From: Nitrososphaeria archaeon
GTDB taxonomy: Archaea; Thermoproteota; Nitrososphaeria; Geothermarchaeales; JDFR-13
Assembly: GCA_027078545.1 (NCBI GenBank)
Contig: JALWXN010000004.1
Location: 320,001 to 384,000 of the forward strand
Length of the DNA: 64,000 bases
Direction: 5' to 3'
Shown: positions 19,783 through 55,236 of the stretch, piece after piece
How positions within the stretch are numbered: the stretch's first letter is position 1
Layout: each line of letters opens with the position of its first letter
Position numbers and translations under genes: made by a program
The notes under the pieces: model-generated
The model's input: only the letters and a program-made list of their open reading frames with translations
Databases searched by the model: none
What the model was told of the DNA's origin: nothing

Positions 19783-20448
19783 ATGGTCGACTTTAGGGAT
19801 CTCTGGACCGGGAAGAAGGAGGGATTCGCCGACAGTATGAAGCGTGGACTGAAGCCGCAGCGCAACATCAGGCCGAAGATCGACAGCGCTATCAAGCTCC
19901 TCAACAAGCAGATCAATAAGCTCGACGCCTCCATAAGGAATCTGAAGCAGAAGGACCAGATCTACTTCGCGAAGGTTGTCCAGGCTATCAAGGATCACGA
20001 CAAGACTATGGCCACCCTTTATGCTAATGAGCTGGTCGAGATTAGGAAGGCTATTAGGACTCTTAAGCAGGCTAAGTATGCCCTGCAGAGCGTGGTTGTG
20101 AGGCTGCAGACTGTGCAGAACATAAGCGACGCGGCTGCCGAGGTACTGCCCGCTATGCAGGTGCTTAAGAATGTTAGGAGCATGATCTCCGTGATCATAC
20201 CCACTGTCGATGAGGGCTTCGCCCAGATCAACGATGTCTTTGAGAACCTGATATGGGAGGCTAGCCAGAGCAGCGACACAACAACATCTATAGCCACGGC
20301 TAGTGACGAGGCTCTGAAGATCATCCACGAGGCTGAGAAGAAGGCTAAGGAGGAGATGAGGCGGGAGCTGCCCGGTATACCTGAGGCTGTTGCCGAGTCT
20401 GAGGAGGGCTACGGCGAGAGTGGTGAGTATGGCGGCTTCCGCTTCTAG
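19783..20448 (+). CDS. cdvB: ESCRT-III/Snf7 protein, CdvB paralogue lacking the wH domain
   Basis: Helical core with A.LYANELVEIRK and L..V..RL.T; SD GAGGTG before ATG 19783. Confidence 0.9.
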   Translation: MVDFRDLWTGKKEGFADSMKRGLKPQRNIRPKIDSAIKLLNKQINKLDASIRNLKQKDQIYFAKVVQAIKDHDKTMATLYANELVEIRKAIRTLKQAKYALQSVVVRLQTVQNISDAAAEVLPAMQVLKNVRSMISVIIPTVDEGFAQINDVFENLIWEASQSSDTTTSIATASDEALKIIHEAEKKAKEEMRRELPGIPEAVAESEEGYGESGEYGGFRF

Positions 20449-21109
20449 ACCCCACCCCTCATCTTTTTACCACTTGATTGGTAGGAATGTTGTTGAGAGG
20501 TATGGACGTTTCAGGGGGCGTGTAGTCTCCTATAAGGTCACCTCGGATGGTGAGCTGGATAAGGTCTTCATCTCGAACGACGGCTTCATAATGTATAAGA
20601 CCCCGTCCTCCCTCATCCTGGATGGGAAGGTCGTGATGATCGTCCCCCCGCCCATTAAGAGGGCGAGGGAGGTCTTGGATGAGCTTGAATACATATATCT
20701 CCAGATGAAGACCCTCAACAACATCTTCTCCATAGACTCCCGCTGGGGGTATGTGGAGAAGTATTACCGCATGTTCAGGACCCGGTTCGAGTCACTCCTG
20801 AAGGAGGTTAACCGGGTCCTGAGGAGCCTGGAGAATAGGAGGCGTAGGCTCAACGAGTTGATAGCCGAGTATAAGGAGGGGCTCTTCACCCTCCAGCTCG
20901 CCCAGGAGTCTGGGCGGGTGGATCCAAACATCTATAAGGCATGCTACGCGGAGGTCTCTGAGGAGATCCTCCGCCTAAGCAATGAGCTTGAGGAGGTTGA
21001 GAACATCATATCCGACATCTCAACCTCCCAGAACCAGATACTCGAGATCATGAACTCGATTGAGGAGAGGTTGAAGGAGGTGGAGGGTTATGAAGTTGAG
21101 GAGGTTTAG
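20429..21109 (+). CDS. cdvA: Cell division protein CdvA
   Basis: PRC-barrel-like LIGRNV.E.YGR..G.VV followed by a long coiled coil; sits inside the cdv operon. Confidence 0.82.
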   Translation: MAASASRPHPSSFYHLIGRNVVERYGRFRGRVVSYKVTSDGELDKVFISNDGFIMYKTPSSLILDGKVVMIVPPPIKRAREVLDELEYIYLQMKTLNNIFSIDSRWGYVEKYYRMFRTRFESLLKEVNRVLRSLENRRRRLNELIAEYKEGLFTLQLAQESGRVDPNIYKACYAEVSEEILRLSNELEEVENIISDISTSQNQILEIMNSIEERLKEVEGYEVEEV

Positions 21110-21974
21110 GTTTGGGGAGATTATCCAGGTTTATGATCAGATGGGTAGGCAGCTATACGTCTACAGGGGACGCCTATCGATGGAGCTGGCCAAGGTGAAT
21201 AATAGGCTGGAGAAGCTGCAGGAGTACATGGATCTCTATAAGGAGCGTGGAGACCTTGAGATGGCGGCTATCTATGCTAGGGAGTATAAGGCCCTCTACG
21301 TTGTGAGGGAGATTCTCTGGCACATGATCCTACGCCTAGACGGTGTGATGGCTAGGATCGACACGGTTAAGAAGCTGGCCTCCGGCTTCGACGGTATGGG
21401 CGACACATTGAAGGCTGTGAGTGACGTGATTAAGGTTGCCGGCCCAGCTGTCTCGGGCTTCGAGGAGCTGGCCAGGAATCTATACACCGGCTATACTGAG
21501 CTGGTGGTAGATGCATCTGTCCCCGTGACTAACATGTATGTAGCCCCTGTGGAGGATGCTAAGGAGATCCTACGCAACATAGAGAAGGATGTTGTGAAGG
21601 AGTTGGCTAAGAAGTTCCCAAAGATCCCCAGGGATATAGAGGTGAGTCCAGAGGCGATACCAAAGCTTGTGAATAGGCTCTACGAGGCCATAGCCACGGA
21701 TGGCGGTGTGGCCGAGGTCATGGTGAAGCCGAGGGATGAGGAGGTTGTGGGTATTGTCAGGGTCTCCCTGAATAGGGAGGAGCTCTACAGGGTCTCTATG
21801 CACAGGCTGGAGAGGCTTGAGAGGGCGGTCCTCAACTACCTCCTGAAGAACTATAGGGGTGGGGAGGTTTCACTCAACCTCTTCAGGTTTGCCAGGGCCT
21901 ATAGGACCACGCCTATGAAGGTTCTTGACGCGCTATACTCCCTGAGTGAGATAGGGTTGATTAGGTTTGGGTAG
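21090..21974 (+). CDS. cdvB: ESCRT-III CdvB with C-terminal winged-helix
   Basis: A.IYAREY, L..V..RI.T core; C-term V.NYL....GE.....FA..Y......V..AL..L...GLI. Confidence 0.85.
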   Translation: MKLRRFRFGEIIQVYDQMGRQLYVYRGRLSMELAKVNNRLEKLQEYMDLYKERGDLEMAAIYAREYKALYVVREILWHMILRLDGVMARIDTVKKLASGFDGMGDTLKAVSDVIKVAGPAVSGFEELARNLYTGYTELVVDASVPVTNMYVAPVEDAKEILRNIEKDVVKELAKKFPKIPRDIEVSPEAIPKLVNRLYEAIATDGGVAEVMVKPRDEEVVGIVRVSLNREELYRVSMHRLERLERAVLNYLLKNYRGGEVSLNLFRFARAYRTTPMKVLDALYSLSEIGLIRFG

Positions 21975-21985
21975 TGTGGTGTGGC

Positions 21986-23164
21986 ATGAGGAGCCTGAGA
22001 GACCCTGAAGAGATACGGTTGATGCGGGATCAGGCGGCCCAGTACGCCAATATGGCGGTCCAGGCCGATAAGAGGGGGGTGACCTCCCTCGCCATCAGCT
22101 ACTATAACAAGGCGATCGACCTCCTCACGGAGCTCATCAATATCGAGGAGTCGCCGGAGATACGTAGGATGTATAGGAAGGCCCTTCGCCAGTATAGGGA
22201 TAGGGTTAACTATTTGAGGGGGGTCTCCTCAGGCTCCGTTAGGAATGTCTCGAGCCTCGGTGTGAGGGAGGGCGGCCCCTCTGGCCAGGAGCATGGGAAG
22301 GAGGATGTATTAGTCCCCTTCAAGTCCAGCATTACGTGGGATGAGATTATTGGTCTTGAGGAGGCTAAGAAGACTATTCGCCAGTCCATCGTATACCCTG
22401 TGAAGAGGCCCGACCTCTTCCCCCTAGGCTTCCCTAGGGCTATACTCCTCTACGGCCCGCCTGGATGTGGTAAGACCAGTATAGCGGCGGCCCTCTCCAA
22501 CGAGATCGAGGCTGAGTTCTATCCAGTCGACGCGACGATGATCATGTCTAAGTGGCTGGGTGAGAGTGAGAAGAGGGTTGCCAAGATATTCAACTATCTC
22601 AGGGAGAGGGCCCGTGAGAGGCCCGTCATCCTCTATATTGATGAGGTGGACTCGATACTCAGTGTTAGGAATAGTGAGGTGGGTGGTGAGCTCAGGGTTA
22701 GGAACCAGTTCCTCAGCGAGATGGATGGCCTTAAGACTAAGGAGATGTCTGACCTCCCACTCTTCATAGTGGCGAGTACCAATAGGCCTTGGGACCTGGA
22801 CATGGGTTTTATCAGGCGTTTCCAGAAGAGGATCTATATTCCTCCTCCTGATAAGAGGACTAGGAAGCAGCTCTTCCAATACTTCCTATCGAAGGTCTCC
22901 CACTCCGACGATATAGACCTAGACTTCCTCGCAGACTATACCCGTGACTATACCCCGAGCGATATTAGGGATGTTGTCCAGACTGCTGTCATCGAGGTTG
23001 TCTCCGAGCTCTTCGAGAGTGGCCGTGCCTCAGACCCGAATGCCAAGCCGAGGCCCCTGACGATGGATGATCTTAAGCATGCCTTGAAGAGGGTGAAGCC
23101 CAGTATATCCAGGACCCTGCTCAACGCCTATGAGCAGTGGACGAGTAGGTTCAAGAGTATATAG
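21986..23164 (+). CDS. cdvC: Vps4-like AAA ATPase CdvC
   Basis: N-terminal MIT domain, GPPGCGKT, MSKWLGESEK, IDEVD, TNRPWDLD, RRFQKR. Confidence 0.95.
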   Translation: MRSLRDPEEIRLMRDQAAQYANMAVQADKRGVTSLAISYYNKAIDLLTELINIEESPEIRRMYRKALRQYRDRVNYLRGVSSGSVRNVSSLGVREGGPSGQEHGKEDVLVPFKSSITWDEIIGLEEAKKTIRQSIVYPVKRPDLFPLGFPRAILLYGPPGCGKTSIAAALSNEIEAEFYPVDATMIMSKWLGESEKRVAKIFNYLRERARERPVILYIDEVDSILSVRNSEVGGELRVRNQFLSEMDGLKTKEMSDLPLFIVASTNRPWDLDMGFIRRFQKRIYIPPPDKRTRKQLFQYFLSKVSHSDDIDLDFLADYTRDYTPSDIRDVVQTAVIEVVSELFESGRASDPNAKPRPLTMDDLKHALKRVKPSISRTLLNAYEQWTSRFKSI

Positions 23165-26729: not shown

Positions 26730-26731
26730 CT

Positions 26732-26807
26732 TGGTGGGCCCGCCCGGACTCGAACCGGGGACCTCCGGCGTGTGAGGCCGGCGTCATAGCCTCTAGACCA
26801 CGGGCCC
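26732..26807 (-). tRNA. tRNA-Val(CAC), CCA encoded
   Basis: GGGCCCG acceptor stem, CCGGC-CT-CAC-AC-GCCGG arm, GTTCGAGTC T loop, ACCA end. Confidence 0.96.
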
Positions 26808-26868
26808 ACTCGACACTATATATTTTTCTATCCCGGGGGATGATTTAAGCCTTTACAGTGGATTGGGG

Positions 26869-27426
26869 ATGAGGCTGGGTATTACTGGCACGCCTGGCAC
26901 TGGTAAGACAACGATATCGAGGCTGCTTGGCGAGGCATTGGGGCTCCCAGTCATCCATCTAGACGACGTCATTATTAGGGAGGGGCTTGTAGAGGGGTTT
27001 GACGAGAGGCGTGGGAGCCTCGTAGCTGATGTGGAGCGGGTTACAGAGGCCGCCCCTAGACTAGTCAGTGTCGACGGTGTGTATGAGGGCCTATCAATAA
27101 TCTATATAGAGGATCCAAGCGTCTTCGACTGGATTGTTGTCCTTAGGTGTAGCCCCTACGTCTTGGAGGAGCGGCTTAGGGCGAAGGGCTTCCCCGAGGA
27201 GAAGGTTAGGGAGAACGTTGAGGCTGAGATCCTGGATATAGTCTATTCCGAGGCACTCAGGATATATGGTGGGAAGGTTCTCCAGGTAGATAATACCGGG
27301 GATCCCCGTGAGACTGTGGAGCGGATCATGGATAAGCTGGGTAGGGGTGACGCTAGGTGCGACTCTGTGGACTGGCTGGGCCTGATATATGAGAGGGGTG
27401 ATTTCCAACGCTTCTTCCGTGGCTAG
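26869..27426 (+). CDS. AK6/Fap7-type adenylate kinase
   Basis: ITGTPGTGKTT, VLRC.P..L..RL..KG....KV.EN.EAE. Confidence 0.9.
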   Translation: MRLGITGTPGTGKTTISRLLGEALGLPVIHLDDVIIREGLVEGFDERRGSLVADVERVTEAAPRLVSVDGVYEGLSIIYIEDPSVFDWIVVLRCSPYVLEERLRAKGFPEEKVRENVEAEILDIVYSEALRIYGGKVLQVDNTGDPRETVERIMDKLGRGDARCDSVDWLGLIYERGDFQRFFRG

Positions 27427-28919
27427 GCGTTGGGCTCTATCCTGACAGGGAATGGTAGTGGGTTCCTACTATCCTTTACCAGTGCCTCCCCAACGCCTAG
27501 CTGCTTCACATACTCTATCTGCTCCTCATTCATAGAGACGATGTTCCTGATGTATGTCAGGTCCTCCCACCCTGTTAGGCGGTGGATTATGACTAGCCCT
27601 GCGTTCTTCAGTGGGGCCTTCGCTATCTGGGAGGGGAACTGGGTTATAATTGCTATGGCCTCCCCGAACTTACGTATCTCATCCATGATCTTCTCCGCCA
27701 CTGTTGGTGGGTCGTACTCTCTACGGGCTGGTATTAGGTAGCGGGCCTCCTCGAGTACTGTTACGTGGCTTAGGCTCTTCATACCGCTGAGCCTCTGGTG
27801 GTTAAAGAGCCTCTTGAGTAGTATGTATCCGAATATCTTCCTGAGGTTAACCTCGTGTATATGTCCAAGCTCTATCACGGTGTTCCTCTGGACTATATCC
27901 TCTATCCTTATGGTCTCCCCCTGGCCGAATATCTTGGCTCCTTGGCCCGCCACTAGTTGTTTCAGCCTCCTGAGTAGGGCTGCCTTGGTCTCGTGCTCGC
28001 TATAGGATTTTATGGGGAACTGTTCTATGATGCTTATCAATGCCCTTATGTTGGGCTCCTTCTCGCCTACTAGGTGGTATCTCGAGTATGTCGCCTCTAG
28101 TGCGGTCTTGAAGAAGTATTGCTGTGGATGGGTGAATCCGTAGACCTCGCTGAATATGTCGGTGATTATGGATGCGCTGTCCTCTATGTCCCCCTCATCC
28201 TTTATGGGGTTGAGCACCGCCTCCCCTAGTCCAGGCCTTATGACTAGGTCTAAGTTCTTGAGCTTCGATGCATACTCGTTGTGGTAGTCTAGGACTAGGT
28301 ATGGGGTGTCCCTTGGGAGCTGGTTGAGTATGGTGGCTATCGTGGTGGTCTTGCCCATCCCTGTGGAGCCTATGCATGCTATGTGGCTGGATAGCTGGTC
28401 TATGGGTATTACGTAGTCCTCACCCGTGTCTACCAGTCTGCCCAGCCTTATAGTAGCCTTACCAGGCCTGCTCTGGACGGGTAGTTTGAATAGTCCCCTA
28501 GGCTTGACCAGCTGTAGGTCTCCCCCGGACTCGAACCTTATGTAGTGCTCCCCCCTACCACCATTCCTCAGTCTCCACCTGTATATCGTCGATATCTCTC
28601 CATCACCTACTAGCTCCACCTCGTAGTCTGGGAATGCTGTTAGGACTATATTCCTTATTGCCTGTGCCTTTGAGAGGGCGGCCTCCCTAGAATCTCCCCT
28701 GGTGACTATGTATAGGCCTTCGTGCCTCCCGTCGACGTAGTGTATTATCTGTACTGGTATGTGGAGGTTCTTGAAGGCCTTGATCATGTTCCTATAGGCT
28801 GTGACGTGTTGATAGGCCTTCACCCTCCCCTCATCTATCTCTGGGCTGCTCCCCAGTATCTTCACCCCGGCCATATACTCCCTCTTCGACCCGTTTAGCC
28901 TAGGGATTAGCCTCTTCAT
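27423..28919 (-). CDS. HerA/FtsK/VirB4-superfamily ATPase
   Basis: H..C.GSTGMGKT, LDYHNEY, VLEEA, EIRKFG, TQ.P; non-HAS N-terminus. Confidence 0.88.
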   Translation of the reverse strand: MKRLIPRLNGSKREYMAGVKILGSSPEIDEGRVKAYQHVTAYRNMIKAFKNLHIPVQIIHYVDGRHEGLYIVTRGDSREAALSKAQAIRNIVLTAFPDYEVELVGDGEISTIYRWRLRNGGRGEHYIRFESGGDLQLVKPRGLFKLPVQSRPGKATIRLGRLVDTGEDYVIPIDQLSSHIACIGSTGMGKTTTIATILNQLPRDTPYLVLDYHNEYASKLKNLDLVIRPGLGEAVLNPIKDEGDIEDSASIITDIFSEVYGFTHPQQYFFKTALEATYSRYHLVGEKEPNIRALISIIEQFPIKSYSEHETKAALLRRLKQLVAGQGAKIFGQGETIRIEDIVQRNTVIELGHIHEVNLRKIFGYILLKRLFNHQRLSGMKSLSHVTVLEEARYLIPARREYDPPTVAEKIMDEIRKFGEAIAIITQFPSQIAKAPLKNAGLVIIHRLTGWEDLTYIRNIVSMNEEQIEYVKQLGVGEALVKDSRNPLPFPVRIEPNA

Positions 28920-28933
28920 CTATCCTGTCCCCT

Positions 28934-29113
28934 CTATAGGAATGGGAATAGTGTGTCCCACCACCACTGTACCGCGTCGAAGAAGGTCTGGATAGCCTCC
29001 TGGATCTTCTCGTAGATCATGTTGGCTGCCCCCATAGCTATCCCGATCCCTAGCAGGGCCACTATGATTAGTAGGCCCTCCTCGATGATCTGGGCTCCAC
29101 GCCTCCTCCTCAT
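28934..29113 (-). CDS. Small Flp-like class III pilin (59 aa, not in ORF track)
   Basis: Manual translation: MRRRRG|AQIIEEGLLIIVALLGIGIAMGAANMIYEKIQEAIQTFFDAVQWWWDTLFPFL. Confidence 0.8.
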   Translation of the reverse strand: MRRRRGAQIIEEGLLIIVALLGIGIAMGAANMIYEKIQEAIQTFFDAVQWWWDTLFPFL

Positions 29114-29186
29114 GGTGCATCCCCATCCATTAGGGGTTGTGGCAGTGTTAAAGGTGGTGGAGAGGGTTGTGAAACTATTCCCACCA

Positions 29187-29693
29187 CTATCCCAGTAGTG
29201 GTCTTGTGAATCCGGTTCCCAGGATGGTTGCGAATATGTATATCACTATGTTCCTGAGTAGACCTCTCCTGTCTGGGCCGTGGAAGATCCATGTGATTAG
29301 TGCTGTCTGTAGTAGGCCGAAGAGCCTGTATATCAGTGTGTCTCCCCCTCCAAATGTTATTAAAAGGTTCTCGGTTATCGTTATCCCGCTGATAACTTCT
29401 AGGACGGGTATCGTCGCCCCGAGTGTGAAGGCCGCTGTGGCTGATAGTATAGATAGCCTCCTCATTATCTGCCGCTCCTTGTTCCTCAGCCTCCCTAGGA
29501 ACTTCTCCTGGAGTATAACCGTCTTTGTGTAGCCGCGTATAACCTCGGTCCTCCTAGATATTGCCTCTAGGTCTGTCTCCACCTCCCTATTCCTGATGTA
29601 GTTTCTCAGCCTCTCTAGCTCCCCCTCCTCGTAGAGTGCTCTGGCCACTGATCTTCCTTTGAGTATCTTGTCGAGTATCTCTATCAGCCCCAT
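29187..29693 (-). CDS. Membrane protein, probable minimal TadB/TadC-like platform
   Basis: Short helical cytoplasmic part then about 3 TMs; downstream of the secretion ATPase. Confidence 0.55.
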   Translation of the reverse strand: MGLIEILDKILKGRSVARALYEEGELERLRNYIRNREVETDLEAISRRTEVIRGYTKTVILQEKFLGRLRNKERQIMRRLSILSATAAFTLGATIPVLEVISGITITENLLITFGGGDTLIYRLFGLLQTALITWIFHGPDRRGLLRNIVIYIFATILGTGFTRPLLG

Positions 29694-30161
29694 CTACCTC
29701 GCCACCCTTGTAAGTATCCTTGTTAGTAGGGCCTGGAGTATGGGTATTGGTAAGAGTATCCAGGGGCCTAGTGGGATCGTGGCTATCAGTGCGAGGAGGG
29801 GTGGGAAGACTGTTACTGCGCTTATGAGTGCTGCCTTGACGTCCAGGTTCTCCACCTCCCTCTCCAGCCTGTCTATCTCTAGCTCAATGTCTGATGCCGC
29901 TGTCTCGACCACTATCTCAGGGTCTTCAGCAACTTCTACCCCACCTACTCTGTCTATATCCTCGAACAAGAGGTTCTTCTCCAGGTCTCCACTGGATATT
30001 AGGGCTGCTCTTAGCGGGCTACCCGAGACTATGTATTCGGATAGCTCCATGAACCTGGTGGCTATACCCGAGCCACTTAGGGCTTCCCACACCCCCCTCC
30101 CCATAGCCAGTGCCGCGGCTATGTGGCTTAGTATTAGGAGGGTTATTAGTACTGCCTCCAC
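29694..30161 (-). CDS. Membrane protein, probable minimal TadC/T2SSF-like platform
   Basis: G....EAL and SGSPL.AAL repeats, acidic helix, then TM hairpin (F.PLL); overlaps the ATPase stop. Confidence 0.6.
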   Translation of the reverse strand: MEAVLITLLILSHIAAALAMGRGVWEALSGSGIATRFMELSEYIVSGSPLRAALISSGDLEKNLLFEDIDRVGGVEVAEDPEIVVETAASDIELEIDRLEREVENLDVKAALISAVTVFPPLLALIATIPLGPWILLPIPILQALLTRILTRVAR

Positions 30162-31342
30162 GCTACTAATCCCTCCTCCAACTCTTCTGAGAGGTATATG
30201 TCTCTAAGGTATCTCCTCCCCGTGTGGAGGTCCCTTGCAGTTATTAGTACCAGGCCTACCTGTTTCAATGCTGCTTCGTATCCCTCTCCGAAGCCTCTTC
30301 CCAGCCTCATTATGAGGCTCTCTATATCGCTGGCGTGGATGGTGGCCATGACCCTTATACCCATGAGCAGGGTCTCGAGCATGTGCTGGATATCGTTGTT
30401 GGTTATGACCTCTCCATATACTACGTAGTCGGGGCTCCTCCTCAGGTTGAATAGGGTCTGTATCCCCCTCTTCTCAGACTCCACTATTCCCGACTGTCTA
30501 TAGTAGATGTGGTGGTAGCCGTGTGGCCTTAGGTCCTCCGTCTCCCTAGCCTCCTCTAGTATGAGTATCCTTAGGTGTCCAGGCATCTCCTTCAGTATGG
30601 CGTTTAGGAGGGTTGTCTTACCGCTGTTGGGCTCACCCATGATGAGTATCGATGGATACCTCCTCAGCTGCTCCAGTATGGTGATCCTCTGCTCATCGTC
30701 CATGAAGCCCCTCTCCACGAGGCCCTCCAGGGTGTTCCCACTCCCCATGTGCCTCCTTATGACGGCGTAGGTCTCTCCATGGGTTAGTGGGAATGTGTCT
30801 AGGACTATTCTGAACCTATCCCTGACTGTTGATATGTCGGCCTCTATCGAGCCTCCCCTCCTTGATACCCCCTCTGCAACTATCAGCTCGAGGATGCGTC
30901 TCAGGGCTGTTAGGCCGTCCTCCCCGATATACATGTTTGTCTTGTAGCTGGTCCCGTCCATCCTCCTAACCCTGATCTCGTTATCGCCCCCGAGAATGTA
31001 GATCTCCTGGTTCTCGGGGTCTGTCATCAGTATGTGGAGGGGTAGGAGGCCTATCGAGTCCCAGAAGGCTATCTCCCCTATCTCCTCATTCGCATCCTCT
31101 GAACCGCTCAGCCTCTCCAGTGCTTCGTGGATATTCCTCCTGAGGATCTCCTCCAGGGTTGGGTATCTACTTAGCCCACTGAATACTGGTAGCTCCCTCG
31201 ATAGTTCCTGTATATGTGTAGACGCCTCGAGGATCTCTGGTGTAAAGCCGTAGTACAGTGTTCCGCCCCTCCTCGTGAGGGCTATGTACCTGGTTATCCT
31301 AGCCTCCCACTCCTCCAGGATAGGTATGGAGCCAAGCCTCAT
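30146..31342 (-). CDS. TadA/CpaF/VirB11-like secretion ATPase
   Basis: DP..QEI.I, IRRH, GEPNSGKTT, LEEARE Asp box, LRRSPDYVVYGEV, TIHA. Confidence 0.88.
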   Translation of the reverse strand: MRLGSIPILEEWEARITRYIALTRRGGTLYYGFTPEILEASTHIQELSRELPVFSGLSRYPTLEEILRRNIHEALERLSGSEDANEEIGEIAFWDSIGLLPLHILMTDPENQEIYILGGDNEIRVRRMDGTSYKTNMYIGEDGLTALRRILELIVAEGVSRRGGSIEADISTVRDRFRIVLDTFPLTHGETYAVIRRHMGSGNTLEGLVERGFMDDEQRITILEQLRRYPSILIMGEPNSGKTTLLNAILKEMPGHLRILILEEARETEDLRPHGYHHIYYRQSGIVESEKRGIQTLFNLRRSPDYVVYGEVITNNDIQHMLETLLMGIRVMATIHASDIESLIMRLGRGFGEGYEAALKQVGLVLITARDLHTGRRYLRDIYLSEELEEGLVAWRQY

Positions 31343-31365
31343 CCCGAGTAGGGATTGGCCCGGAG

Positions 31366-31408
31366 GAGTGGTAATAAATTATTTTCACTCATCACATCCC
31401 AGTTATAA
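31366..31408. promoter_or_regulatory. Divergent promoter with 25-bp imperfect palindrome and two TATA boxes
   Basis: GAGTGGTAATAAATTATTTTCACTC (31366-31390); TTTATTA on minus about 30 nt before ATG 31342; TTATAA 31403-31408 before ATG 31434. Confidence 0.6.
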
Positions 31409-31433
31409 GCTGCTGGAGAGCGGTATTAACGGG

Positions 31434-31559
31434 ATGAATAGGGTTCTGAGGCTGTTTGGAGACACTGCTCTGAAGGCTCTTATGCTTGGACTGGCTATAC
31501 TCGGCTTTCTCCACTTGGTGGGGGTGGTTAGGGATTGGATAGGTATGCTGCGACCCTGA
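31434..31559 (+). CDS. Small single-TM protein (41 aa)
   Basis: MNRVLRLFGDTALKALMLGLAILGFLHLVGVVRDWIGMLRP; TATA upstream. Confidence 0.55.
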   Translation: MNRVLRLFGDTALKALMLGLAILGFLHLVGVVRDWIGMLRP

Positions 31560-31717
31560 TACTCGAGGTTGTATTGCTGGTTGTTCTCTCGGGGATCGCT
31601 CTGTTGATCGGTGGTCGTTTACTGGAGATTCTAGGCGTGGCTGTCTGTAGGCCTGAGGAGGTGGTTGTGGATAGGGGTCTATACCATGTCGTGTATAGGG
31701 TGGGTGTGAGGTGCTAG
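31535..31717 (+). CDS. Small single-TM protein, minor-pilin-like
   Basis: N-terminal hydrophobic helix with an early Glu; two Cys in the short C-terminal part; overlaps neighbours. Confidence 0.55.
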   Translation: MDRYAATLILEVVLLVVLSGIALLIGGRLLEILGVAVCRPEEVVVDRGLYHVVYRVGVRC

Positions 31718-31830
31718 ACGACTTTATAGATACCCTGTTGAGCCTGGCCCTAGCCAGTGTATTTCTCCTGGTCCTCTCCCTAGTTGCCCTTGTCCTCCTC
31801 CTATTCCTGGGGGTGTTGCTTGGTGCTTAG
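31711..31830 (+). CDS. Very hydrophobic 39-aa peptide (not in ORF track)
   Basis: MLDDFIDTLLSLALASVFLLVLSLVALVLLLFLGVLLGA; overlaps upstream and downstream ORFs in operon fashion. Confidence 0.5.
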   Translation: MLDDFIDTLLSLALASVFLLVLSLVALVLLLFLGVLLGA

Positions 31831-32089
31831 TAGGGTCTTGGCCCTTGTCGTGGGTGTCTCGGTACTGGTTATGAGTATTGGGAGTATCGTCCTCCTCCTG
31901 GTGGATTATGTCTCCTTCAGGCCTGTCCTCGACCCTTGTGAGGAGTTGTTGGCTGATGTTGGCCTGGGTAGGGTGGGCGTGGATGGTGTGTGGCGTGAGG
32001 ATGGTCTGATATACGTCTCTACTCAGGGCTCGGTGGTGATCGTCTCTCCTGATGGGAGGGTGGTTGGATGCGGAGGAATGGATACCTAG
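31823..32089 (+). CDS. Small N-terminally anchored secreted protein
   Basis: TM followed by a short beta-rich domain with two Cys; GTG 31823 overlaps the previous stop. Confidence 0.6.
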   Translation: MLSRVLALVVGVSVLVMSIGSIVLLLVDYVSFRPVLDPCEELLADVGLGRVGVDGVWREDGLIYVSTQGSVVIVSPDGRVVGCGGMDT

Positions 32090-32397
32090 GTATCTACCTC
32101 GCAGTATTCATCGTTGTGGCTGTGCTCATGGCGGGTACTATCTTCATACTATATAGTGTGGACCCCACTGCTAGGGGGTATGACGAGTATGCCGTCGATG
32201 TTGTTGGGGTCTATGCGGCTATGGAGTGTCTAGGTATTGATGGGTATAGGCCGCCATACGGTGATGCCGAGTCGTATGTCGAGGATGGCATGATAGTTGT
32301 CGAGGTCAGGGTTGGCCAGTATAGATATGTTGGATATGTGGATCTCCATAGCCCGAACTGTAGGCTTCTTAGGAATTACTCTATGGGTTCGGGCTGA
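32068..32397 (+). CDS. Pilin-like protein with possible class III signal
   Basis: MRRNG|YLGIYLAVFIVVAVLMAG; two Cys; beta-rich C-terminus. Confidence 0.6.
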   Translation: MRRNGYLGIYLAVFIVVAVLMAGTIFILYSVDPTARGYDEYAVDVVGVYAAMECLGIDGYRPPYGDAESYVEDGMIVVEVRVGQYRYVGYVDLHSPNCRLLRNYSMGSG

Positions 32398-32801
32398 TCT
32401 GTAGCTGTGGAGTCTTCAGTCTGCTCCTCCTGTATTATCCCGGTCTTGATGGCTAGGTATCTCTCTAGGGGGTCTAGGATCTCCTCGTTATCCTCGTACT
32501 CCGCCTCCTCGTCCTGTGACCTCGTGAGTAGTTTATGGACCTTTCTATAGCTTACCCTCTTACCCAGCTCCCTGTCCAGCCTCTCGATGAGCTCCTTCAC
32601 CGAGACTATCTCGCCGTTCTTCTTCAGGACTAGGTAGGTCGCCGCTATCAGGACCTCGTATCTGGTTGGGCTGAGGTCTCTCCTATCCAGCTTCACCACA
32701 TATTCCTTGACCTCCCTACCCCACCTCTCAGATACTCCTAGCGCCTTTAGCAGCCTGATTATGGTGTCAAGCCTATTGTCAACAAGGCTGTTCTCTAGCA
32801 C
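32376..32801 (-). CDS. Truncated TFB-like protein (single cyclin repeat plus acidic tail)
   Basis: I.RL..AL.V.E...DL.....E.LIAA.Y......G...SVKEL....VS pattern resembles a TFIIB repeat; no Zn ribbon; in-frame stop upstream. Confidence 0.55.
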   Translation of the reverse strand: MLENSLVDNRLDTIIRLLKALGVSERWGREVKEYVVKLDRRDLSPTRYEVLIAATYLVLKKNGEIVSVKELIERLDRELGKRVSYRKVHKLLTRSQDEEAEYEDNEEILDPLERYLAIKTGIIQEEQTEDSTATDQPEPIE

Positions 32802-33013
32802 CTCTCCCCACCTGTAGCTTTCATTGTTCCAGTGGATGTCTATGGGTGGAGGGTCTAGTCATGGCTTGGCCTGAATACTTTCATCATGGGGGTGGGATAG
32901 ATTATCCCCTCCCCAGGGATGTGTGAAAGTGTTTATCGGGTCTCTGTGGCACCGACCCGTTTAAAATAGCCATGTATATAATTCTTTTTACATTCCTGTT
33001 AGGGTGTCCTCCT

Positions 33014-46545: not shown

Positions 46546-47568
46546 GTGAATATGATTAAAATGCGCAAGGTGACATACGAGGAATATCTTAACTACCTAG
46601 AAAAGAATAAAGAGATAGAAATTGAAGGTAGTAGGATTAGTCTTGACCCCATAAATGTTAAGCGAATATATCCATCTATGGTTGAGCTCACAGATGTTTC
46701 TACCACAGTTTGGAGTTTTCCCAAAAGGGGTTCATGGGCTACACACAGGGGTGATTATCGTGGAAACTGGCCTCCGCAGATGGCTCGTGCATTAATATTA
46801 GGATATTCAAAACCTGGAGACACAGTCTTGGATCCTATGATAGGCAGTGGAACTACTTGCATCGAAGCGAAACTCCTTGGCAGAAATTGTATAGGCATAG
46901 ATATAAACTATAACTCGGTTATATTGACATTGCACAGGTTATACTGGCTTGAGAGATATTTAGAAAGAGTAGCTAAATCTGGAGATAACCTTTATAGGTG
47001 GCTTCATAAAAGTACTAATACAGAGAATAACGATGAGAACATAAGCATTCAAGACATGCTTAGAGCAAAAGTGGAAATATACCATGGAGACGCGAGATAT
47101 CTCGATAAAATCTCAAGCAACAGTATTGATTTAGTCGCTACACATCCACCCTATTACAACATCATAAAATACGGTGGTAAATCTAGGACTCCCGGAGACT
47201 TATCAATGGCTAGGAGCTTAGAAGAATATCTTGAGATGATCTGGCAAGTTGCTAGGGAAGCCTACAGAGTACTTAAACCAGGCAAGCATATAGGCATATT
47301 AGTTGGAGATACCCGAAGGTATAAGCACTATGTGCCAATAACTCACTATGTCCTAGATATTCTTCTCAAAACTGGATTCATTCTTAAGGAAGAAGTTGTA
47401 AAAATACAGCATAAAATGAAAACTACAAGAGAAAAGTGGAGGAAGTTGAAAAGTAGGGATTTTCTGTTAATCTATCATGAAAAACTTTTTATACTGAGAA
47501 AACCCTACGGTAATGACGACTACCAGAAGTATAAATACAGCTCAAAGCTGGACTTTAATTTGATCTGA
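46546..47568 (+). CDS. N4-C/N6-A DNA methyltransferase
   Basis: Motif I VLDPMIGSGTT precedes motif IV THPPY; HE.L.I.RK. Confidence 0.88.
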   Translation: MNMIKMRKVTYEEYLNYLEKNKEIEIEGSRISLDPINVKRIYPSMVELTDVSTTVWSFPKRGSWATHRGDYRGNWPPQMARALILGYSKPGDTVLDPMIGSGTTCIEAKLLGRNCIGIDINYNSVILTLHRLYWLERYLERVAKSGDNLYRWLHKSTNTENNDENISIQDMLRAKVEIYHGDARYLDKISSNSIDLVATHPPYYNIIKYGGKSRTPGDLSMARSLEEYLEMIWQVAREAYRVLKPGKHIGILVGDTRRYKHYVPITHYVLDILLKTGFILKEEVVKIQHKMKTTREKWRKLKSRDFLLIYHEKLFILRKPYGNDDYQKYKYSSKLDFNLI

Positions 47569-47791: not shown

Positions 47792-49684
47792 ATGGATATT
47801 CTCTTGTTGGGGGATCGGGTTAAGGAGGCTATCTATGAGTTTGTTGGTAGGCGGGATGTTGAGGTTACTCTTGAGGTTCCCCAGAGTCCTGAGTATGGGG
47901 ATCTCTCTACTCCCTATGCTTTTAAGGCTGCCCGTGTCTTGGGGCGTAGGCCTCTGGACCTGGCTAGTGATATTAGGGATCATCTCCTCTCCCTAGGGAT
48001 AGACTATATCGCTGATATCCGTGTGGAGGGTGGGGGCTATATAAATATTCATCTGGATAGGAACAGGTTCTACAGCGACTATTTCCGCCGGCTTGTGGAG
48101 GAGGGTCTCGACCTATTCCGCGGCAGGTTTGGCGAGGGCTATGTTAGGATCGAGTATACCAGTGTGAATCCGAATAAGGCTATCCATATTGGGCATGCCC
48201 GTAACATCCTCCTAGGCGTGGCGCTCCACCGCCTCCTGAGTAGCCTGGGCTATAGGGTCCACCTGATGAACTATATCGACGATACCGGGGTGCAGATGGC
48301 TGACCTGATGCTGGGCTTTATAGAGCTTAACTTCCCCCTGGAGCCTCCCAATGGGATGAAGTTTGACAAGTATTGTGGCGATGTGGTCTATGTGGAGAGT
48401 GTTAGGCGGGTTGAGGAGGAGCGTAGGCTTAGGGATGTGGAGCGTAAGATCCTGAGGGCTTTGGAGGAGGGTGACAACCCGATCTACGAGTATTCCCGTA
48501 GGGTTGCGGAGAGGGTTGTCAGGGCCCAGCTGGAGACCTGCTTCAGGCTCGGGGCTAAGTATGACGTCCTGGCCTGGGAGTCCGACCTGGTTAGGAGTGG
48601 CCTCCATAACCATCTATCCAAGGTGATCGAGGCTAGTAGGAAGATTATCAGGGTTGAGGAGGGACGCTACGCTGGGGCCGTCGTTATCAAGGTCTCGGAG
48701 GGTGATGAGATTGATCCTAAGAGGGATGAGGTGATCGTTAGGAGTGACGGTACACTTACCTATGTAGGTAAGGACCTGGTCTTCGCTATGTGGAAGCTGG
48801 GCCTCCTAGATATGCATGTACCGGTAGACGTCTTCGGGGAGAATCCCGACGGCTCCAAGATATTCACTACCCGTGACTCGGGCCTGGGATATAAGCCTGA
48901 CCCGCCGGACATACTCCTCAACGTGATTGGTAGGGAGCAGACGAAGCCTCAGAACGCTATTAAGGAGGTGTTGAGGGAGGTTTATGGGGAGGAGGTGGGT
49001 GGCAAGTATATCCACTACTCTTATGAGTTGGTGAAGCTGTCTGCCGAGTCGGCTAGGAAGTACTTCGGCGTGGAGAGTGAGAAGTCTGCTGTTAAGATGT
49101 CGGGTAGGAGGGGTCTCTACTTCAATGTGGATGATGTCCTGGCGAAGATGGTGGAGATCGTCTATCGCCACATGGTTGAGAATAAGTCGATAGCCTCTGA
49201 ACAGGAGGCTCGCCAGGTGGCTGAGAAGGTGGCTGTGGCCAGCCTGATGTACCAGCTCATAGCTATTGATAGGGATAAGCCAATCGTCTTCGATATTGAT
49301 AAGAGCCTGGACTTCAAGGGTGAGACTGGGGCCTATATCCTCTATAGCTATGTCCGCGCCAACTCCATACTCTCCAATGCTGGGGAGTCGGGTGACTTCA
49401 ATATTGACTATAGCCTCCTCAACATGTATGACCTAGGCCTATCCAGGTTCATTGTCGTTGCACCCATAGTTATCCACTCCGCGGTTAAGTATCTCGAGCC
49501 CAAGTATATCATGACGTATCTCTATAGGCTGGCTAAGAGCTTCAACGACTTCTATGAGAGGTGTCCAGTGCTTAGTAGTACGGATCCTGTTAGGCGTTAT
49601 AGGTTGGCTATTGTGAGGGCCTATGCATCCACGGTTGAGCTTCTAGCGAGGCTTGTGGGCCTACCACTGGTTAAGAAGATGTAG
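47792..49684 (+). CDS. argS: Arginyl-tRNA synthetase
   Basis: EYTSVNPNKAIHIGH.RN, RSDGT..Y, KMSGRRG, Y..Y.Y.RA.SIL. Confidence 0.96.
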   Translation: MDILLLGDRVKEAIYEFVGRRDVEVTLEVPQSPEYGDLSTPYAFKAARVLGRRPLDLASDIRDHLLSLGIDYIADIRVEGGGYINIHLDRNRFYSDYFRRLVEEGLDLFRGRFGEGYVRIEYTSVNPNKAIHIGHARNILLGVALHRLLSSLGYRVHLMNYIDDTGVQMADLMLGFIELNFPLEPPNGMKFDKYCGDVVYVESVRRVEEERRLRDVERKILRALEEGDNPIYEYSRRVAERVVRAQLETCFRLGAKYDVLAWESDLVRSGLHNHLSKVIEASRKIIRVEEGRYAGAVVIKVSEGDEIDPKRDEVIVRSDGTLTYVGKDLVFAMWKLGLLDMHVPVDVFGENPDGSKIFTTRDSGLGYKPDPPDILLNVIGREQTKPQNAIKEVLREVYGEEVGGKYIHYSYELVKLSAESARKYFGVESEKSAVKMSGRRGLYFNVDDVLAKMVEIVYRHMVENKSIASEQEARQVAEKVAVASLMYQLIAIDRDKPIVFDIDKSLDFKGETGAYILYSYVRANSILSNAGESGDFNIDYSLLNMYDLGLSRFIVVAPIVIHSAVKYLEPKYIMTYLYRLAKSFNDFYERCPVLSSTDPVRRYRLAIVRAYASTVELLARLVGLPLVKKM

Positions 49685-50627
49685 CTAAGTACTCGGCTAC
49701 ATAGATGGCTATCGCCTTGGATAGTGGTGGTGGGACCGATTCTCCGACCTGGTTGTACTGGTCCTCTATGGGGCCTTGGAAGACGTGGGTGTCTGGGTAG
49801 CCCATCAGCCTCGCCTGCTCCCTAACGGTGAGTAGCCTATCCTCATATGGGTGTATGAATCGGCTCTTCCCCATGACTGTGGGTGCCTGTTTCCTTGGGT
49901 GTAGCCTGATATACTGTTTATACTCCCTGTTGGTCCCGCCTCTGAAGAATTCTAGGGCCTCTCCCCACCTCACCCTTGCTATCCTCCCCTGGAACCTCTT
50001 GGGTGGGTTGATATATCTATGGTTGGGTATCTCGTTGGGTAGCCTCGGGTCTGGGAGGCCGTCTAGTGCCTCCTCCACCGTGGGTGCTCCACCTGTCTTC
50101 CTAGGCTTTATCCTTATGTTTGAGATGAAGATCCTCCTCCTGTGGCTCGGGTTGCCGTAGTCGGCTGCGTTTAGCCTGTTGAAGTATATCTCTGGGTAGC
50201 CCACCCTCTCCAGCTCCATCCTTATATACCTCGGTATCTCGCCGTCCATGATGCCTGGGACGTTCTCGATTATGAATATCCTGGGCCCTATATCGCCTAT
50301 CAGCCTGATCGCCTCTAGGGTTAGCCTCCCCCTGGGGTCTGTATATAGCCTGTCTAGGGGGTCCTCCATGATCCTCCTACTCGCCTTTGTGAAGGCCTCG
50401 CATGGTGGGGAGGCTATCACGACATCTATGCTCCCAAGCCCCTCCATCAGCTCTGCTGAGTGGAGCCTCCTAATATCCATGATGTACATCTTCTCGGGGG
50501 AGATGTTCCTCAGATATGTAGCGGCTGCTGCAGGGTCCTTCTCTACAGCCGCCACTATCTCGAAGCCAGCCTCTTTGAAGCCTAGTGCGTAGCCCCCGCC
50601 ACCCGAGAATAGGTCTATCAGCCTCAT
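49671..50627 (-). CDS. C5 cytosine methyltransferase (orphan)
   Basis: DLFSGGGG, SPPC, ENV, R.R, LTVRE.ARL.GYPD, Q.GESVPP; true start at ATG 50627. Confidence 0.9.
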   Translation of the reverse strand: MRLIDLFSGGGGYALGFKEAGFEIVAAVEKDPAAAATYLRNISPEKMYIMDIRRLHSAELMEGLGSIDVVIASPPCEAFTKASRRIMEDPLDRLYTDPRGRLTLEAIRLIGDIGPRIFIIENVPGIMDGEIPRYIRMELERVGYPEIYFNRLNAADYGNPSHRRRIFISNIRIKPRKTGGAPTVEEALDGLPDPRLPNEIPNHRYINPPKRFQGRIARVRWGEALEFFRGGTNREYKQYIRLHPRKQAPTVMGKSRFIHPYEDRLLTVREQARLMGYPDTHVFQGPIEDQYNQVGESVPPPLSKAIAIYVAEYLATSS

Positions 50628-50679
50628 GGCCCCCTGTTTAATTCCTAGGTGTCTCCTAAGTAATATGGGGTGGCCTGGG

Positions 50680-52327: not shown

Positions 52328-52397
52328 CCCCAATATATTCACTAACCCCACGCCCCCCTTTTAAGACGAGCCATACCCGGCTTTACGGGTGATACCC

Positions 52398-52802
52398 ATG
52401 GCGTCGAGGCGTGGAATATCCCACTTCCTAGAGGTCGTGATACTCGTGGGCCTCGTGGGTACCCTTGGTATGCTGATCTACAGCGGTGCTCTCGACCTCT
52501 TCGCTGGCTGGGGCGATGTGAAGCAGGTGACTATACAGTCTACATACCTGATCAATGATACGCTGAACATAGTCGTCTCTAACAAGGGCTCGACCACGGT
52601 GGAGATAGACAGTGTTGGTGTATACTTCATAAACGGGACACTACTTGGACAGGCGAGTGGGCCTGGTAAGATAGGCCCTGGGAAGGTCGGTAAGTTCACG
52701 CTCACGGTGCCTCTAGGAGCGTTGCAGGAGGGTGATCTGGTCGACATAGTGATCTCTACTGGCGACGGCTCAGCGTTTAAGTTCAGGGTAGCGGTGCAGT
52801 GA
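52398..52802 (+). CDS. Archaeal type IV pilin
   Basis: Class III signal SRRG|ISHFLEVVIL; Ig-like V.N.G, I.PG, I.T.DG..F. Confidence 0.88.
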   Translation: MASRRGISHFLEVVILVGLVGTLGMLIYSGALDLFAGWGDVKQVTIQSTYLINDTLNIVVSNKGSTTVEIDSVGVYFINGTLLGQASGPGKIGPGKVGKFTLTVPLGALQEGDLVDIVISTGDGSAFKFRVAVQ

Positions 52803-52808
52803 TGTGCC

Positions 52809-53219
52809 ATGGCCTCCAACATGCTGGGTGAATCCATCCTCCTCTTTATATCCGTCTCGCTCCTGGGTATGGGGGTGGTCAGCATATACCAGCCTAGCCT
52901 AAACATACTGGGCCTTGGGGCTGAGGAGGAGGTTAGGGACGGCTATTCATATGGATACCATGTCTCGATACTCTTCCTCCGTGACGGCTATCTATACCTC
53001 CTCAACGATGGACGTGGGATAGGTGAGGTATCCATGATATATGTGGATGGCTCTCCACTAGAGCCTCCCTACGAGGTCTATGTAGGGGGTCAGTGGATAC
53101 TCTCCAGCTCACTGCCTAAGGGGGGTATACTGAGGATACCTGTTACCCAGGCCCCAGGTGAGGTTGTCCTACTTGGTGATGGATACGTGATACGTGCCCG
53201 GGGTGATGTGTATGGCTAG
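52809..53219 (+). CDS. Minor pilin-like protein
   Basis: N-terminal hydrophobic helix, LLNDG...IYVDG; within the pilus operon. Confidence 0.65.
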   Translation: MASNMLGESILLFISVSLLGMGVVSIYQPSLNILGLGAEEEVRDGYSYGYHVSILFLRDGYLYLLNDGRGIGEVSMIYVDGSPLEPPYEVYVGGQWILSSSLPKGGILRIPVTQAPGEVVLLGDGYVIRARGDVYG

Positions 53220-55233
53220 GAGGGGCTTCTCAAACGTCTTGGTGGCTGGTGTGATACTCCTCTTGGCGGCCACTATATTCACGGCCTACATGGTCTATCT
53301 GGACAGTGGGGCATATAGGGTGTCGGAGCTGGGCCGCTCAGTGGAGAGGAGTGTCTATAGGGCTGGGGAGGAGTTGACCGCCTACCTAGATGGTGGGACC
53401 ATTGTTCTGCGCAACAGTGGTGAGACCCCACTCAGGGTTGAGTACCTCGTCGTCCTCAGGAATGGGGAGGTGTCCTTCGAGGAGGTGGGTATTGGGCTGC
53501 CACCGGGTGGTGAGGACTATATACAGGCGCCCATTAGTGGATACCCCCTCTACCTCATAACTGAGAGGGGTAGGGTCTTCCCACTGGGTGGCCAGGACAC
53601 GTCTGGTGGTGGAGGCTCAGGCGGCTTCAACAGCTTCTACACCTCGTGGATAAACGAGACGACCGTGATCATCCATGGGGATCAAGACCCATTCAACCAG
53701 TCTGCATATGATAGGGTTGAGAGGCTTGAGCGTGGCATAGCCCTATTCAGGGGTGACGCGGGCTATGCCGTGATAGACCTGATTGAGAATAGGACTCTCT
53801 ATGAAGGGGTTAGGATGGTCATACCCACTAGGGACGGATTGACACTGGCCACTAGTAGGGGTGTTTTCATCGAGGGTGTATACACCCTGTCTAGTAGGCC
53901 TCCCCTCTATGTTGGCTACGACTACATGGTTCTAGGGGGTGTGAACACGGTCATAGCTGGTGCCAAGATAGGTGTGTTGACCCTCCCATCACCGGGTAGG
54001 CTGATCTTCAATGGGAACAGGACTTACTACATGTGGCTCGAGGGTGAGGTGAATGGGCTTTGGCGCCACGGACTACTCTCTATAGACCCTATGAACATCA
54101 GTCTACGGGAAACATACTATGTAGACCTGCCCATGAAGATACTCTTTGGGGAGGAGTGGTTTAGGCTACACAATTTTAACGGCTACTGGATAGTCGACGA
54201 CGGGTTTAGGCCGGTTAGGATAGTCATCACCGCTAGGGATCCCTCCATAAATGGATGGATGAGTATGGTCGTAACCCTGAGGGAATACCTGCCGGGTGTG
54301 TATATAGCCGATGGGATACGCTACACCGATGACGGGTATGTAGAGGGGATCCAGTATGACCAGGCGTCATCGACGGTGGGTGGTAGTGGCTTCCCCCTAT
54401 TCTTCGCTACAGGCCTACATCAGGGCCAGGATAGGATGGTGTATAACCTGGATGGTGAGGGGAGGATAGGCCTACTCCTACGGTACACCATTGGGGGCTC
54501 GGGACAGGCAACACCTGGTGAGAGCAGCATAGTCCTCCGCCTAGAGTCTCAGCAGGGATATGTAGAGCTACTTTTCAACGCCTCCTGGGACGGTGGCCTC
54601 GAGTGGAGTATAGCCCTGGATACAGGTGGTGGTCTGACCGAGATAAGGAGTGGGGGCGTCGCATCAGGTGGATGGATACTCCTATCCATGTTCCCAGACA
54701 CCTCCCTAGGCATATACACTGCTAATGACCTCGTCGGGCTGTACAGTGTATCACTATCCCCGCCATATCGACTGGTGGTTATGAACAGCTCGGCTGCCAG
54801 CTTCTCGCCATATATTACGGTGGAGGTCTTCATGCTGATGGTTGATCCCGAGTCATGGGTGGTCCATGAAAACTACTATGGATATGCAGTCTCTAACATT
54901 CAGAATAAGCCCACGATCCTACTCCCATACTTCTACGGCGCAGTTGGTATACGCTTCACTGGGGATGTATACTTCTCCAGCTATGGGCCGGTAGCGGTCT
55001 ACAACTACTGGGAGCTCCCCAACGTCTATATGCTTGAACCACCTATACATAGGGTAACCTCCCTCAGGGATGACGATACGGTTGGTGTCTACATCCTAGA
55101 GTCTCCCTATCGTAGGCTCGATGTCTATACTGGGCTGTACATGGACTGGGACGTGATTCCCTACACAGAGTTCTACCTAGTCGTCTCGATACATCCCAAG
55201 GCACTACTCGTTAGGAAGATTCCCTATGCATAG
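53212..55233 (+). CDS. Large pilin/adhesin with class III signal
   Basis: MARRG|FSNVLVAGVILL, pilin domain, Gly linker, long beta-rich C-terminus. Confidence 0.78.
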   Translation: MARRGFSNVLVAGVILLLAATIFTAYMVYLDSGAYRVSELGRSVERSVYRAGEELTAYLDGGTIVLRNSGETPLRVEYLVVLRNGEVSFEEVGIGLPPGGEDYIQAPISGYPLYLITERGRVFPLGGQDTSGGGGSGGFNSFYTSWINETTVIIHGDQDPFNQSAYDRVERLERGIALFRGDAGYAVIDLIENRTLYEGVRMVIPTRDGLTLATSRGVFIEGVYTLSSRPPLYVGYDYMVLGGVNTVIAGAKIGVLTLPSPGRLIFNGNRTYYMWLEGEVNGLWRHGLLSIDPMNISLRETYYVDLPMKILFGEEWFRLHNFNGYWIVDDGFRPVRIVITARDPSINGWMSMVVTLREYLPGVYIADGIRYTDDGYVEGIQYDQASSTVGGSGFPLFFATGLHQGQDRMVYNLDGEGRIGLLLRYTIGGSGQATPGESSIVLRLESQQGYVELLFNASWDGGLEWSIALDTGGGLTEIRSGGVASGGWILLSMFPDTSLGIYTANDLVGLYSVSLSPPYRLVVMNSSAASFSPYITVEVFMLMVDPESWVVHENYYGYAVSNIQNKPTILLPYFYGAVGIRFTGDVYFSSYGPVAVYNYWELPNVYMLEPPIHRVTSLRDDDTVGVYILESPYRRLDVYTGLYMDWDVIPYTEFYLVVSIHPKALLVRKIPYA

Positions 55234-55236
55234 GGG

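Follow-up and report, generated by a model that had tools for sequence, protein, structure and literature searches.

Why would an archaeal chromosome keep the genes of a type IV pilus directly beside the gene of an ATPase related to the DNA import protein CedD? This arrangement is found at positions 27423-32801 of a 64,000-nucleotide stretch (hereafter, the window) from the genome of a Nitrososphaeria archaeon (GCA_027078545.1, contig JALWXN010000004.1, positions 320,001 to 384,000). The host is a vent archaeon of the Geothermarchaeota. A cluster-mate of the ATPase from its genus bears the label Candidatus Geothermarchaeota, and the window DNA is present in hydrothermal vent metagenomes. The locus offers an answer to what the archaeal pilus subclade 4D was for, and to whether an Orc1-2/TFB3 damage response, and DNA exchange of the CedD type, occur beyond Sulfolobales. 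A complete 4D pilus joined to CedD is a new combination of known kinds; our literature search found no description of the full locus, which the supplementary tables of a 2026 survey may list.

Pilus genes and their affiliation to subclade 4D

A preliminary description, made from the sequence alone, had placed on the minus strand a secretion ATPase, two membrane proteins, a pilin and a HerA-family ATPase, flanked by five divergent tiny membrane open reading frames (ORFs) and a TFB-like fragment. All of these ORFs were recovered in place. The five micro-ORFs form an identical set, in identical order, in genera throughout the family, and against the 327-position profile built from its full-length relatives, the TFB fragment aligned to positions 128-196 (E 9e-8). 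All eleven ORFs are real genes, under purifying selection when compared with the sister genome G002 at ~92% nucleotide identity (pN/pS 0.03-0.37 overall and 0.08-0.37 for the micro-ORFs).

In the phylogenetic tree the secretion ATPase was sister to three Thermoproteales ATPases (support 100/99), which we assigned to subclade 4D by their published ATPase-membrane-TFIIB-RPB8 layout, and it was separate from UpsE, AapE, ArlI and the ATPase of the second pilus locus of the window. The Tad/Flp label that the system had first received therefore gives way to an archaeal one, and the pilus is not of the Aap, Ups or archaellum type. Subclade 4D has been described as an ATPase plus one membrane protein, devoid of pilins and possibly non-functional (Makarova et al. 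2016, PMC4858521; Sivabalasarma and Albers 2026, PMC13705601). The published trait of having no pilins in the locus does not hold here, as both major and minor pilins are encoded. Together, the tree and the gene content indicate that this locus is the complete form of subclade 4D.

The major pilin consists of a basic leader followed by a G|A junction, Glu at positions +5 and +6 and a hydrophobic helix, with no globular head. A class III signal peptide (basic leader, G/A at -1, Glu+5, hydrophobic helix) was predicted across 29 homologs, in which both Glu residues are invariant, and the gene is single-copy per genome (63 genomes, E<1e-8). Its distance to the start of the CedD-like ATPase gene was 0-17 nt in 12 of the 13 loci checked. 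Because in fuller loci an A24 prepilin peptidase (PF01478, E 1e-10) heads the divergent operon, we read the micro-ORFs as minor pilins; homologs of the fifth (32068-32397) start with RRG or RKA and continue into a hydrophobic helix. PF01478 peptidases were also detected in three genomes of the family. A Pfam search alone found no prepilin peptidase in the genome of the window; a profile of the family peptidases identified a homolog at C4:1012527-1012958 (E 4e-12), unusually short at 143 residues, with a 145-residue ortholog in genome G003. PF00482 was matched weakly by 5 of 19 homologs of platform protein 2 (best E 9.5e-6) and by 3 of 19 homologs of platform protein 1 (best E 0.004), and by neither window protein.

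Stand-alone homologs of the major pilin were found in Thermoproteales (E 1e-5 to 1e-9), including cultured Pyrobaculum and Thermoproteus; in eight loci (L226-L232, L235) of Thermoproteales-type genomes, a lone protein of 64-76 residues is encoded. These homologs may be the pilin that subclade 4D has so far lacked. Genome names are our assumption: we take G063 to be Pyrobaculum calidifontis, G167 Thermoproteus tenax, G170 Aeropyrum pernix and G133 Sulfolobus acidocaldarius. The second type IV pilus locus of the window (52389-58156, plus strand) is unrelated and comprises two pilin-like genes (136-137 residues), an adhesin-like protein of 679 residues, an ATPase of 451 and a fused platform protein of 540.

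Across sampled Thermoproteota the secretion ATPase profile gave a bimodal distribution, with 61 of 301 genomes below E 1e-100 followed by a gap to 1e-75. Among the matches listed, 40 of the 45 genomes having both genes carried the secretion ATPase and the CedD-like gene within 6 kb, and this linkage was seen in every family member with sufficiently long contigs. These relatives are not independent, and the counts give the range of the linkage rather than a statistical coupling. The complete locus, with pilins, TFB paralog, CedD-like gene and often a prepilin peptidase, occurs in ~45 of the sampled genomes. In at least 10 families the full order is Sm, (rpo8), TFB paralog, minor pilins, ATPase, two platform genes, pilin, CedD-like gene, adenylate kinase and thermosome; rpo8 adjoins the locus in several relatives and is missing from that of the window. 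Where other genes relocate, those of the pilin and the CedD-like ATPase remain adjacent (L048, L056). Reduced versions of the slot read Sm, cedD, adenylate kinase, thermosome in Desulfurococcales-type genomes; Sm, rpo8, tfb3, thermosome, cedD in Sulfolobaceae; and Sm, rpo8, TFB, 4D ATPase, membrane gene, thermosome in Thermoproteales. Position and trees thus suggest that Sulfolobus tfb3 and cedD descend from the same ancestral locus. In four loci of families f34 and f44 (L207, L208, L210, L220), a diverged HerA-family gene follows the pilin; ~1.7 kb occupied by other genes separates it from an adenylate kinase gene that is inverted.

The locus is chromosomal and probably vertically inherited. 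As noted early on, it holds no integrase, NurA, Mre11 or Rad50, and its composition is native (GC 52-54%, the same as its flanks); a mobile element was rejected given this composition, the fixed chromosomal slot and the absence of an integrase.

The CedD-like ATPase, the TFB paralog and the damage-response element

The ATPase encoded behind the pilin, at first likened to CedB, has CedD as its nearest family. CedD was its best match in NCBIfam (165 bits; HerA 64, CedB 32), below the curated cut-off of 600 bits for NF053655, which is passed solely by the Sulfolobaceae-type family. The profile of the window ATPase family scored 213 bits for CedD, 107 for HerA and 25 for CedB, and on these scores CedB identity was rejected. 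When the CedD of the S. acidocaldarius-type genome G133, whose genes exceed the curated CedD, CedB and HerA cut-offs, was used as query, the window ATPase was the top match in its genome (E 8e-29, the next being 6e-8), and the two are reciprocal best matches. The tree placed it in a 43-row clade with Sulfolobaceae CedD and crenarchaeal homologs (support 85/94), and its constraint to the repair HerA clade was rejected (p-AU, from the approximately unbiased test, 0.016). Repair HerA identity was discarded on this result, on an N-terminal domain that is not a HAS-barrel and on the lack of an adjoining nurA. In crenarchaeal genomes cedD occupies the same slot, alongside the adenylate kinase and thermosome genes. 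By reciprocal best match, position and a tree of moderate support, the window ATPase is a probable ortholog of CedD, a protein essential to DNA import in two Sulfolobales species (PMC11823120, PMC11868833).

The protein has a ferredoxin-like N-terminal domain (residues 15-118), Walker A at 184 and Walker B at 387, and no transmembrane helix. In the predicted model, the nearest folds to the motor were DndH (Z-score 32.5), VirB4 (31.9) and HerA (28.2), and the coupling protein TrwB gave 23.6. The N-domain profile matched that of CedD weakly (probability 45, E 2e-4); fold searches with this domain alone returned generic ferredoxin-like matches only (best Z-score 6.8), the VirB4 chain 8rtd_g giving E 0.03 and a TM-score of 0.46. 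Elsewhere, the genome encodes nurA-herA-mre11-rad50 (C4:1082020-1089317) and a second nurA-herA pair (C4:41016-43404), and its remaining three HerA-family genes fall outside the CedB group in the tree. The CedD tree is without the published TedD, since a search of five Thermoproteales genomes gave no close CedD-clade gene (best match at E 3e-18). The CedD-like group also includes bacterial proteins of 1,000-1,100 residues (L050:8714-12016, L051:272-3289) from delta- and zetaproteobacterial metagenome-assembled genomes.

The TFB paralog had been compared with the truncated TFB3. In relatives it has 270-350 residues, a Zn ribbon and two cyclin repeats; in the window and in G002 the first cyclin repeat remains and the Zn ribbon is lost. 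A TFB3-type truncation was rejected since TFB3 keeps its N-terminus and is shortened in its C-terminal core, whereas this remnant lacks a Zn ribbon; its shortening is lineage-specific. The TFBs of 4D loci scored 63-110 bits on the locus TFB profile versus 43-51 on canonical TFB. For TFB3 itself, the scores do not decide between the two profiles (28 bits versus 22). It is position and promoter, not sequence, that connect the locus TFB with TFB3.

The DNA-damage element of S. islandicus, with the core ANTTTC, is bound by Orc1-2 (PMC6061795). Three promoters of the locus carry this core, one belonging to the pilin-ATPase unit, one to the operon of the micro-ORFs and one to the TFB gene, and three further species of its genus keep these sites. 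In the pilin promoter, AATAGTTTCAC equals the S. islandicus consensus over its first 10 bases and stands 18 nt ahead of a TATA-like box, with motif and spacing retained in these species. The arrangement of the micro-ORF promoter is repeated in two further loci (L032, L034), and the element also precedes the TFB gene in L032, L035 and L036 and tfb3 in L094; at TFB promoters it was found in 15 of 23 cases, in a search window longer than that of the controls. The presence of this element in the locus gives independent support to a reading of damage-linked DNA exchange.

The genome contains 13 copies of an extended form of the motif, and 12 of these fall in the gaps between long ORFs, which make up 19% of the DNA. 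Besides the window locus, the genes downstream include radA (C4:70153-71142), mcm (C4:277963-280062), orc1/cdc6 (C4:283545-284747) and endonuclease V (C4:972284-972949). The motif-bearing orc1/cdc6 lies outside the Orc1-1/-3 clade, and the motif is found upstream of every ortholog of this gene, and also of cdc6-2. Together with a RadB-like ORF behind the element (C4:926382-927026; recognized by eye, no family match), radA, mcm, orc1/cdc6 and endonuclease V would form an Orc1-2-type regulon outside Sulfolobales, with binding and induction as predictions. Unannotated genes of 530, 408, 193 and 112 residues behind the element (C4:198215-201037, 1090390-1090971, 75522-75860), with no NCBIfam match, are candidate damage-response genes; one further site (C4:803124) has no assigned ORF. 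CRISPR-looking repeat arrays (C4 ~497700, 548986-549930 and 789967-792958) have a repeat that includes ACTTTC and raises naive motif counts.

Table 1. Genes and promoter elements of the locus, in window coordinates.
Feature	Position	Strand	Remarks
CedD-like HerA/VirB4-superfamily ATPase	27423-28919	-	498 aa; PF01935 56.5 bits; pN/pS 0.04
Short major type IV pilin	28934-29113	-	59 aa; pN/pS 0.03
Promoter of the pilin-ATPase unit	29148-29179	-	element AATAGTTTCAC at 29179-29169; TATA-like TTTAA at 29152-29148
Platform protein 2 (TadC/T2SSF-like)	29187-29693	-	168 aa, shortened; pN/pS 0.19
Platform protein 1 (TadB/T2SSF-like)	29694-30161	-	155 aa, shortened; pN/pS 0.19
Secretion ATPase, 4D-lineage pilus assembly ATPase	30146-31342	-	398 aa; PF00437 57 bits (cut-off 24.9 bits); pN/pS 0.05; fast-evolving
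Promoter of the micro-ORF operon	31381-31408	+	ATTTTC, 16 nt on TTATAA
Minor-pilin-like micro-ORF 1	31434-31559	+	41 aa, one transmembrane helix; family-conserved; pN/pS 0.08
Minor-pilin-like micro-ORF 2	31535-31717	+	60 aa; conserved; pN/pS 0.24
Minor-pilin-like micro-ORF 3	31711-31830	+	39 aa; conserved; pN/pS 0.37
Minor-pilin-like micro-ORF 4	31823-32089	+	~88 aa; conserved; pN/pS 0.30
Micro-ORF 5, minor pilin	32068-32397	+	109 aa; class III-like leader with basic residues, then Gly and a hydrophobic helix; pN/pS 0.26
TFB paralog remnant, first cyclin repeat only	32376-32801	-	141 aa; pN/pS 0.19; same short form in G002
DNA-damage element 5' of TFB remnant	32923-32934	-	ACTTTC at 32930-32925

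In the surroundings of the locus, a Vps4/CdvC gene and its upstream genes (window 20390-23164), the latter annotated as CdvA-like in a relative, represent a cell-division operon 4 kb away. A tRNA-like sequence lies at window ~26730-26810 (minus strand), with the L40e gene on one side and that of adenylate kinase on the other. DNA-methyltransferase-like ORFs were recognized by eye at window 46546-47568 and ~49671-50640, the first of them within a patch of 40% GC.

Possible functions of the locus

[quoted passage not shown] We infer DNA transport, as well as induction, filament assembly, cell contact and the channel, along the following lines. An Orc1-2-type regulator would bind the observed ANTTTC motifs and switch on the pilin-ATPase unit, the minor-pilin operon, the TFB paralog, radA, mcm and endonuclease V. 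The 4D-type ATPase and the two platform proteins, all present in the locus, would then assemble a thin pilus from the 59-residue pilin and the minor pilins, presumably cut by the prepilin peptidase encoded elsewhere in the genome. By analogy to Ups, this pilus would make cell contact; a hexamer of the CedD-like ATPase could drive DNA inward, and RadA might use the imported DNA for repair. As a conduit we can offer a weak candidate, a CedA1/VirB2-like membrane hairpin protein of 99 residues (C4:106769-107068; L295:6769-7068, minus strand) with a damage element upstream. Of 41 relatives, 20 were found to encode it, nearly all of them locus carriers; PF18895 (T4SS_pilin) was weakly matched by 1 of its 11 homologs (E 0.0055), and no PDB match was obtained. 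The proposal predicts damage-induced DNA exchange in many uncultured Thermoproteota, and it points to a pilin family with stand-alone copies and to a candidate conduit protein.

A broader version of this proposal is that the Thermoproteota ancestor had one damage-induced locus in which type IV pilus genes were combined with those of a CedD translocase and a TFB paralog. Many uncultured lineages would still acquire DNA through it without CedA or CedB, the ATPase perhaps being coupled to the base of the pilus, and its fragments would be tfb3, cedD and the "non-functional" 4D systems. We put this forward tentatively, as an idea that may well prove wrong.

Several observations weigh against import by a pilus-coupled CedD. 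Linkage alone is a weak argument, because genes in this slot generally keep their order. Three families (f32, f41, f52) keep the TFB, secretion ATPase, platform and pilin genes with no CedD-like gene in the locus or, when their genomes were searched, elsewhere (best E 4e-26), so pilus-CedD coupling is not obligatory. CedD monophyly lacks strong support, the window ATPase sits on a long branch and its partner proteins are shortened. The element in the pilin promoter is clear only within the genus; overall it was present in 8 of 30 loci, versus 7 of 15 loci without the CedD-like ATPase and 3 of 28 controls, and as a general trait of pilin promoters beyond the genus it was rejected. The extended motif pattern, in turn, was fixed after the sites had been seen. 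As for the channel, CedA (NF041796) was not found in 41 genomes, in agreement with the preliminary description, although a homolog as distant as TedA (13% identity) would escape this search; no CedB was found in 26 genomes (NF041017), the weak matches being CedD-like genes only, and no ComEC in the same number. TctA was found neither in the genome of the window nor in the main locus-bearing families, and was rejected as the channel since it does not co-occur with the locus. Because it holds no channel, the locus is not a self-contained machine. The original proposal of pilus, DNA pump and regulator united in one locus for DNA uptake or exchange is thus partly supported, by linkage, probable CedD orthology and the damage element, and falls short on the channel.

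Part of this evidence would fit an adhesion or aggregation pilus, perhaps stress-induced, next to a cytoplasmic CedD-like ATPase that acts on intermediates of repair or recombination and was recruited for import later, by Sulfolobales. The two halves are separable, with the pilus lacking the ATPase in the three families above and CedD lacking the pilus in crenarchaeal genomes; the channel searches were negative, the ATPase has no transmembrane helix and the entire slot, housekeeping genes too, is syntenic. However, the pilin and ATPase genes abut, stay together when others move and share one damage-element promoter, f32, f41 and f52 have lost the ATPase together with the minor-pilin block, and two nurA-linked HerA genes are already available in the genome, all of which make this explanation unlikely. 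The joint loss of minor pilins and ATPase would also be understandable if the pilus bound and retracted free DNA, as in competence, and the ATPase drew it in by way of the pilus base, without any distinct Ced channel; the short headless pilin and split platform genes resemble those of the Epd pilus, needed for transformation of Methanococcus (PMC10133366, PMC13705601). We judge this quite unlikely, as neither ComEC nor TctA was found, the platform proteins are small and CedD-dependent transfer in Sulfolobales requires cell contact.

The structural matches to VirB4 and TrwB, and the pairing of a type IV pilus with a HerA-like protein noted for Thermus (PMC11868833), bring to mind export by a donor, as performed by TdtA in Thermus transjugation, with the ATPase expelling chromosomal DNA and the pilus holding or serving the recipient. 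In the two Sulfolobales species CedD is required for import only, and we have little expectation that export is the function. The explanation that we believe least is a decaying or repurposed 4D system without a filament, as proposed for Thermoproteales 4D. The long ATPase branch, the shortened platform and TFB genes, the weak T2SSF matches and a peptidase that is merely a remote homolog of 143 residues would be in line with decay; purifying selection on every gene, strongest on the pilin, and the retention of pilin, minor pilins and peptidase in many families speak against it.

Comparison with known systems

The proposed damage-induced exchange system shares some trait with each of the systems considered. 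With the Epd pilus and bacterial Tad-Flp loci it has in common a short headless pilin, two platform genes and, in fuller loci, a dedicated peptidase. This likeness is one of layout only, Epd and CpaF sequences not being in the ATPase tree, and those loci have no HerA-family ATPase in the descriptions consulted. With Ups pili the locus shares type IV pilus genes behind ANTTTC promoters and a likely induction by damage; in contrast to Ups, the secretion ATPase of the window is not UpsE-like, its pilin is headless and a DNA ATPase is encoded in the same locus.

The resemblance to the Ced system of Sulfolobales includes the probable CedD ortholog, its chromosomal neighbours, a weakly matching N-domain and the promoter element (PMC11823120, PMC11868833). 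Unlike Ced, the window system shows no recognisable CedA, CedB or CedA1/A2, its ATPase has no transmembrane anchor, and the ATPase gene is predicted to be co-transcribed with a type IV pilin. As in the TFB3/Orc1-2 response, a TFB paralog in the tfb3 slot, an upstream element and a motif-bearing orc1/cdc6 are present (PMC6061795, PMC5817253, PMC6101591), and tfb3 (SiRe_1717) lies two tags from cedD (SiRe_1715). TFB3 retains its Zn ribbon, whereas the window remnant is a cyclin repeat only and the relatives are full length.

With the 4D subsystem the locus shares the ATPase clade, the TFIIB paralog family and the slot between the Sm/rpo8 and thermosome genes, and it adds a second platform gene, a major pilin, five minor-pilin-like genes and the CedD-like ATPase. 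Pieces once regarded as unrelated or functionless seem to be joined here in their intact, ancestral form.

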